Assembly: GCF_003334335.1 (NCBI RefSeq)
Contig: NZ_QOWQ01000205.1
DNA from: Escherichia coli
Lineage (GTDB): Bacteria; Pseudomonadota; Gammaproteobacteria; Enterobacterales; Enterobacteriaceae
Strand: one strand, 5' to 3'
DNA: 365 bases
Both the position numbers and the translations under genes were made by a program. Under the pieces are notes generated by a model, which ran no database searches, was not told the origin of the DNA, and saw nothing but the letters and a program-made list of their open reading frames with translations. Positions 267 to 365 of the stretch are shown here, one piece after another. Positions within the stretch are counted from its first letter, which is position 1. Each line of letters starts with the position of its first letter.

Positions 267-365
267 TTATGCCGGGAGCTCCGGGGGGAATGCTTCTTCC
301 AGTCGGTTAACCATATTGCCGAGATGGGATGCATCATATTCCATGACGGGGCGTTGCCTGATGAT
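267..365 (-). CDS. 3' end (last 32 codons plus stop) of an upstream gene of unknown function; gene begins beyond the right edge of the window
   Basis: Minus-strand frame open from 365 to the TAA stop at 269..267: ...IIRQRPVMEYDASHLGNMVNRLEEAFPPELPA*. Its amino-acid composition is more protein-like than the other two frames that are also open here. The 75-bp spacer to the next ATG with no obvious sigma-70 promoter is compatible with a two-gene same-strand arrangement. The frame choice is uncertain because two other frames (one minus, one plus) are also open across 300..365. Confidence 0.4.
   Translation of the reverse strand: MIRQRPVMEYDASHLGNMVNRLEEAFPPELPA

Follow-up and report, generated by a model that had tools for sequence, protein, structure and literature searches.

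At the right end of the window, by which is meant the whole 365-nucleotide stretch of Escherichia coli DNA that was analysed, several reading frames are free of stops at once, and the locus raises the question of which of them belongs to a gene and whether the gap before the minus-strand gene further left is an intergenic spacer or a junction between tightly coupled genes. The window was translated in all six frames. The preliminary description had named three frames without stops over 300..365, and all three were recovered by the translation: the minus frame read from 365 ends at TAA 269..267, as had been given, and a plus frame is open over 243..365 and is preceded by TAA 240..242. A second minus frame, read from 364, does reach a TAA that leaves a 5-nt gap (196..192) to the ATG at 191..189, but this TAA lies at 199..197 and not, as had been written, at 198..196. 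The list of three was one short: a further plus frame, which shares its register with base 1 and has no stop over 250..365, had been overlooked, and the number of open frames is thus four of six. The caution that the window by itself could not settle the frame was judged reasonable.

Matches to the window were searched for by using megablast in complete E. coli genomes, 2,195 of 5,426 of which match it at 95-99.7 % identity, and the RefSeq labels at these matches are 'IrmA family protein' together with either 'hypothetical protein' or 'YeeR family protein'. The best genome matches (99.7 %) have one mismatch to the window, at base 19, inside irmA. Locus L001, which was used for extension of the sequence, has the same letters as the window at bases 20..365, base 19 being again the sole mismatch. 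On the minus strand of L001 an Ag43/Cah autotransporter gene is followed by a coding sequence (CDS) for 838 aa, which ends at the equivalent of window position 267, and then by the gene for an IrmA family protein, which starts at the equivalent of position 191; beyond irmA lie DUF905, DUF932, antirestriction, JAB/YeeS, YeeT and CbeA genes. The arrangement was inspected in seven loci, and the order agn43, yeeR, irmA on one strand was found in L001 and in the six others, both EAEC 042 copies included. The window is part of the agn43-yeeR-irmA island, read on the minus strand, and RefSeq and the literature already describe every part of it; it shares with the published agn43(flu)-yeeR-irmA cluster of pathogenic E. 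coli the order and strand of the genes, the spacer of 75 nt, the irmA start codon and the Shine-Dalgarno sequence before it. In the UTI strain 2/0 (L002:3267-4400) yeeR is a 5'-truncated pseudogene that retains an intact 3' end, and both the spacer and irmA are whole, which agrees with the published frequent insertions and deletions in the flu-yeeR part of the cluster.

Rightward extension, which had been proposed as the check on the choice of frame, was carried out in L001. The minus frame ending at TAA 269..267, which the preliminary description preferred, runs on for 846 stop-free codons and is RefSeq yeeR, so the preference was borne out; the annotated gene is the 2517-nt CDS for 838 aa that ends at window position 267 between agn43 and irmA (L001 4270-6783, minus strand, to the right of the window). 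Two of its rivals, the second minus frame and the plus frame that opens at 243, close at 385 and 386, respectively, both by way of the sequence TTAA at 386..389, 21 nt past the window edge; the reverse pattern, in which the favoured frame closes within a few codons and another continues as a long conserved one, was absent. The four frames, extended in L001 and given in window coordinates, are as follows.

Positions 2807 down to 270, minus strand: favoured frame, 846 codons.
Positions 385 down to 200, minus strand (200..364 within the window): second minus frame, 62 codons, followed by TAA 199..197; a chance open frame, not a gene.
Positions 243..386, plus strand (243..365 within the window): plus frame from 243, 48 codons; a chance open frame.
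Positions 250..447, plus strand (250..365 within the window; L001 coordinates minus 4000): fourth frame, overlooked earlier, 66 codons, the longest of the rival frames; a chance open frame.

Because the second minus frame and the frame 243..386 stop 21 nt past the window and the favoured frame continues, the spacer is intergenic and there is no tight coupling. It is almost certain that positions 267..365 are the 3' end of yeeR, that a 75-nt non-coding spacer and then irmA follow, and that the other frames are open by chance. The features of the window are accordingly listed under these names.

Positions 267..365, minus strand: 3' end of yeeR, the last 32 codons (IIRQRPVMEYDASHLGNMVNRLEEAFPPELPA) and stop TAA 269..267; the gene runs on past the right edge.
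Positions 192..266, minus strand: yeeR-irmA intergenic spacer of 75 nt; no CDS is annotated here in the seven RefSeq loci inspected.
Positions 3..191, minus strand: 5' end of irmA, with ATG 191..189, a hydrophobic N-terminus and the start of the mature fibronectin-III-like protein; RefSeq 'IrmA family protein'.

The frame question resolves to the standard annotation of a published cluster; this is an ordinary result, and it matters little.

The yeeR frame is further marked as coding by its substitutions, which are biased to third codon positions in comparisons of L001 with L003 (46 of 80, p=8e-6) and of L003 with L005 (46 of 73, p<1e-5); the part within the window, 270..365, holds five variable sites, three of them at third positions, and is weak evidence by itself. 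A protein search with the 838-aa product gave 415 relatives at E<=1e-5, and among the 120 of these that were listed nearly all carry PF27347 (YeeR_C) and most are about 820-850 aa long. The hosts are Enterobacteriaceae, Pseudomonas, Shewanella, Methylomonas, Cupriavidus, Dyella, Stenotrophomonas and others, and homologues that span the full length of YeeR occur across Proteobacteria at 31-68 % identity; the family is large and widespread in this group. Divergent relatives were drawn from the protein search and not from BLAST of E. coli genomes, where a distant-mode search gave no usefully divergent copies, nearly all being 95-100 % identical. The product is 98 % identical to P0001, a protein cluster of 15,556 members with PF27347. 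A local Pfam-A scan of YeeR returned weak unrelated matches only, PF27347 not being among them, and the assignment to this family rests on precomputed matches of near-identical and distant homologues and on the RefSeq label 'YeeR family protein'.

An alignment of 17 YeeR homologues (31-68 % identity) shows a C-terminal motif, KP.VV..(K/R)QRP, part of which is encoded in the window. Q810 and R811, encoded at window positions 356..351, are invariant in all 17, and slightly further upstream K801, P802, V804 and V805 show little or no variation. Past about residue 820, that is, over the last 20 or so residues, the tail is poorly conserved and of variable length in distant homologues, so the support at the protein level is strong only for window positions 365 to about 330. 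Within the last 32 codons of L006, a homologue with 68 % identity, five of the six frames contain stops and only the YeeR frame is open.

The product of the window's yeeR is full length for its family (838 aa, the typical length being about 820-850 aa) and shares with it a Cys cluster, a core and the C-terminal motif. The Cys cluster is invariant (C333, C336, C356, C360 and C367), the strongly conserved core reads GGQGHGFAAE...NAKNGADR...QTKYC, and the N-terminal part has hydrophobic segments that are putatively transmembrane. The yeeR of K-12 is a truncated copy. NCBIfam scans of YeeR and of IrmA gave no matches, and in the PDB, searched with a profile of the YeeR alignment, there was no relative of solved structure and nothing beyond a marginal tape-measure match (E=0.058). 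Matches of YeeR in PADLOC and PHROGs (PDC-M09B, E~1e-5; a tape-measure family, E=1e-3) were judged to be low-complexity similarity rich in Gly and Ala and were set aside. YeeR is uncharacterised and its function is unknown (PMC4807369). In the L006 locus (1-8523; Enterobacteriaceae) no irmA follows yeeR; a WYL-domain gene and two unannotated genes stand before it, an ArsC fragment, dndB and a PAPS-reductase gene stand after it, and the neighbourhood is defence-island-like.

How much the additional open frames mean was assessed against the rest of yeeR. When windows of 66 nt were slid along the gene in L001, at least three of the six frames were open in 80 % of them and at least four in 44 %; with windows of 96 nt the values were 54 % and 19 %, respectively. 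The five non-coding frames of yeeR contain 14 stop-free runs of at least 62 codons, the longest of them an antisense run of 238 codons, and with uniform codon use the probability that one frame stays open for 22 codons is 0.35. The several open frames at the right end do not exceed chance, and none of the extra ones is a gene. Since stops are rare over 20-30 codons in coding DNA of about 50 % G+C, the extra open frames over 300..365 are a usual by-product of such sequence. In coding DNA of E. coli it is normal for several frames to be open over 60-100 nt, and this is uninformative unless the sequence is extended or compared.

Each of the extra frames was nevertheless weighed as a gene, by using translations of five E. 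coli loci for comparison of the frames. The second minus frame (385..200; ATG at 337; 46-62 codons) could be a small gene that overlaps the end of yeeR and is coupled to irmA; no stop interrupts it in any of the five loci, and its TAA precedes the irmA ATG by 5 nt. Yet it has at most 62 codons and is closed 21 nt past the window, and the non-coding frames of yeeR hold 14 runs at least this long. Its variable sites fall 1, 7 and 6 over the three codon positions (hand count), with no third-position bias, and among its alleles there are two S->Y changes and a D->G change; in L004 its 3' end is altered by a 1-nt insertion, and in L006, at 68 % identity, its register contains a stop. The frame also spans the published -10 region and transcription start of irmA, its peptide has no family match in PADLOC or PHROGs, and it is unannotated in the seven RefSeq loci. 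The small-gene reading is effectively refuted, and its probability is put close to nil.

The same frame could be entered from yeeR itself. A homopolymer at 283-288 (G6 on the plus strand, C6 on the minus strand) lies 13 nt before the yeeR stop, and a 1-nt loss or a +1 shift at C6 would lead into the frame whose TAA is 5 nt ahead of the irmA ATG. If some ribosomes, or some DNA or RNA copies, shifted at C6 (288..283) into the second minus frame, YeeR would be about 23 residues longer, translation would terminate 5 nt from the irmA start and irmA would be coupled to yeeR. The position of the run and the open +1 register agree with such a shift, but most other alleles, both EAEC 042 copies included, have C5 here, and neither a slippery heptamer nor a stimulatory structure (fold z=-0.5) accompanies the run. 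Moreover, irmA has a good Shine-Dalgarno sequence of its own and, in 042, its own promoter, and the extension peptide, which is rich in Cys, His and Arg, has no family match in PADLOC or PHROGs. A frameshift at C6 is extremely improbable; the narrower form of the claim, that slippage there couples irmA translation to yeeR in the window's allele only, draws its sole support from the geometry and is given hardly any credence.

An antisense small protein over the yeeR 3' end, encoded by either plus-strand frame (243..386 or 250..447), is exceedingly unlikely: both frames are open over the right end of the window and that at 250..447 is open in all five loci, but the frame from 243 carries two stops in three of the five (L002, L003 and L005), all three antisense frames, the equivalent of 250..447 among them, are closed in L006, neither peptide matches any PADLOC or PHROGs family, the sole promoter-like match on the plus strand lies upstream, inside irmA (window-equivalent 140..167), the count of such matches being no higher than in shuffles, and elsewhere in yeeR chance alone gives antisense runs of up to 238 codons without a stop.

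With yeeR ending at 269..267, the spacer of 75 nt (266..192) that had been derived from the favoured frame was confirmed and is intergenic, and the alternative of coupled genes fails. Translationally coupled genes have a stop and a start that overlap (ATGA, TAATG) or a stop that lies a few nucleotides from the next start. Here, by contrast, 75 nt separate the yeeR stop 269..267 from the irmA ATG 191..189, and the in-frame TAA 5 nt before this ATG belongs to the second minus frame, which is no gene. The spacer is a genuine intergenic region, and the two genes are not translationally coupled. The Shine-Dalgarno sequence of irmA, GAGAGG, is found at 205..200, 8 nt ahead of the ATG, and the sequence from there to the start is GAGAGG-TAAATACC-ATG, in which TAAATACC is an A/T-rich stretch of 8 nt; the TAA close to the start is simply a part of this stretch. 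Variable sites are denser in the spacer (9 of 75 positions) than in the flanking coding sequence (5 of 96). ATCC 11303 (L004:3205-3206, window-equivalent 205/206) has a 1-nt insertion directly 5' of the irmA Shine-Dalgarno sequence (CTCATGAGAGG vs CTCAGAGAGG), by which its spacer is 76 nt long.

An Rfam scan (E<=1) of 1.4 kb around the junction returned nothing, and a scan of the minus strand of the spacer with generic sigma-70 promoter and terminator consensus sequences found none, the counts being equal to those in shuffled sequence. The predicted RNA fold of 300..186 is unremarkable in comparison with shuffles (z=-0.5). The near-palindrome CCGGGAGCTCCGG (272..284) was considered as a terminator and rejected, since it lacks a following T run and is not intact in the other alleles.

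In UPEC EC958 and CFT073 agn43-yeeR-irmA is one OxyR-repressed transcript, according to RT-PCR and 5' RACE (Moriel et al. 2016, PMC4807369). For EAEC 042 a study of 2022 described an internal promoter of irmA with a mapped transcription start, proposed ACCTTTTA as a possible -10 element, and found lower expression when the nucleotides at +1, -10, -19 and -20 of the expressed allele were swapped to those of the silent allele (PMC9431211). The two spacers of EAEC 042 differ at window-equivalent positions 264, 263, 254, 244, 231 and 209; ACCTTTTA lies at 254..247 in the expressed allele, and the silent allele has GCCTTTTA there. As the spacing of 264, 263, 254 and 244 fits -20, -19, -10 and +1 exactly, we infer that the irmA transcription start of EAEC 042 has its equivalent at position 244 of the window (minus strand), with a leader that would be 53 nt long. 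The window carries the -10-like octamer TCCTTTTA (254..247) ahead of the equivalent of this start. Its spacer is a third type and differs from both 042 alleles at 264, 261, 254, 246 and 227; counted from the inferred start at 244, the differences include -20, -17 (261), -10 and -2 (246). The T at 244 is common to the window and the expressed allele of 042. The spacer carries the ribosome-binding site of irmA and, in at least one strain background, also a promoter and a transcription start of this gene. Its regulatory interest is that of the irmA promoter region in EAEC 042, which is already published.

The downstream gene, irmA, extends past the left edge of the window. Its product matches IrmA (interleukin receptor mimic protein A, PDB 5EK5): the 151-aa protein aligns with 5EK5 'IRMA' over residues 24-151 (E=1.9e-82), and the hydrophobic first 23 or so residues are read as a putative signal peptide. 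The mismatch at window base 19 changes IrmA residue 58 from G in the nearest genomes (NGEGF) to D in the window (NDEGF).
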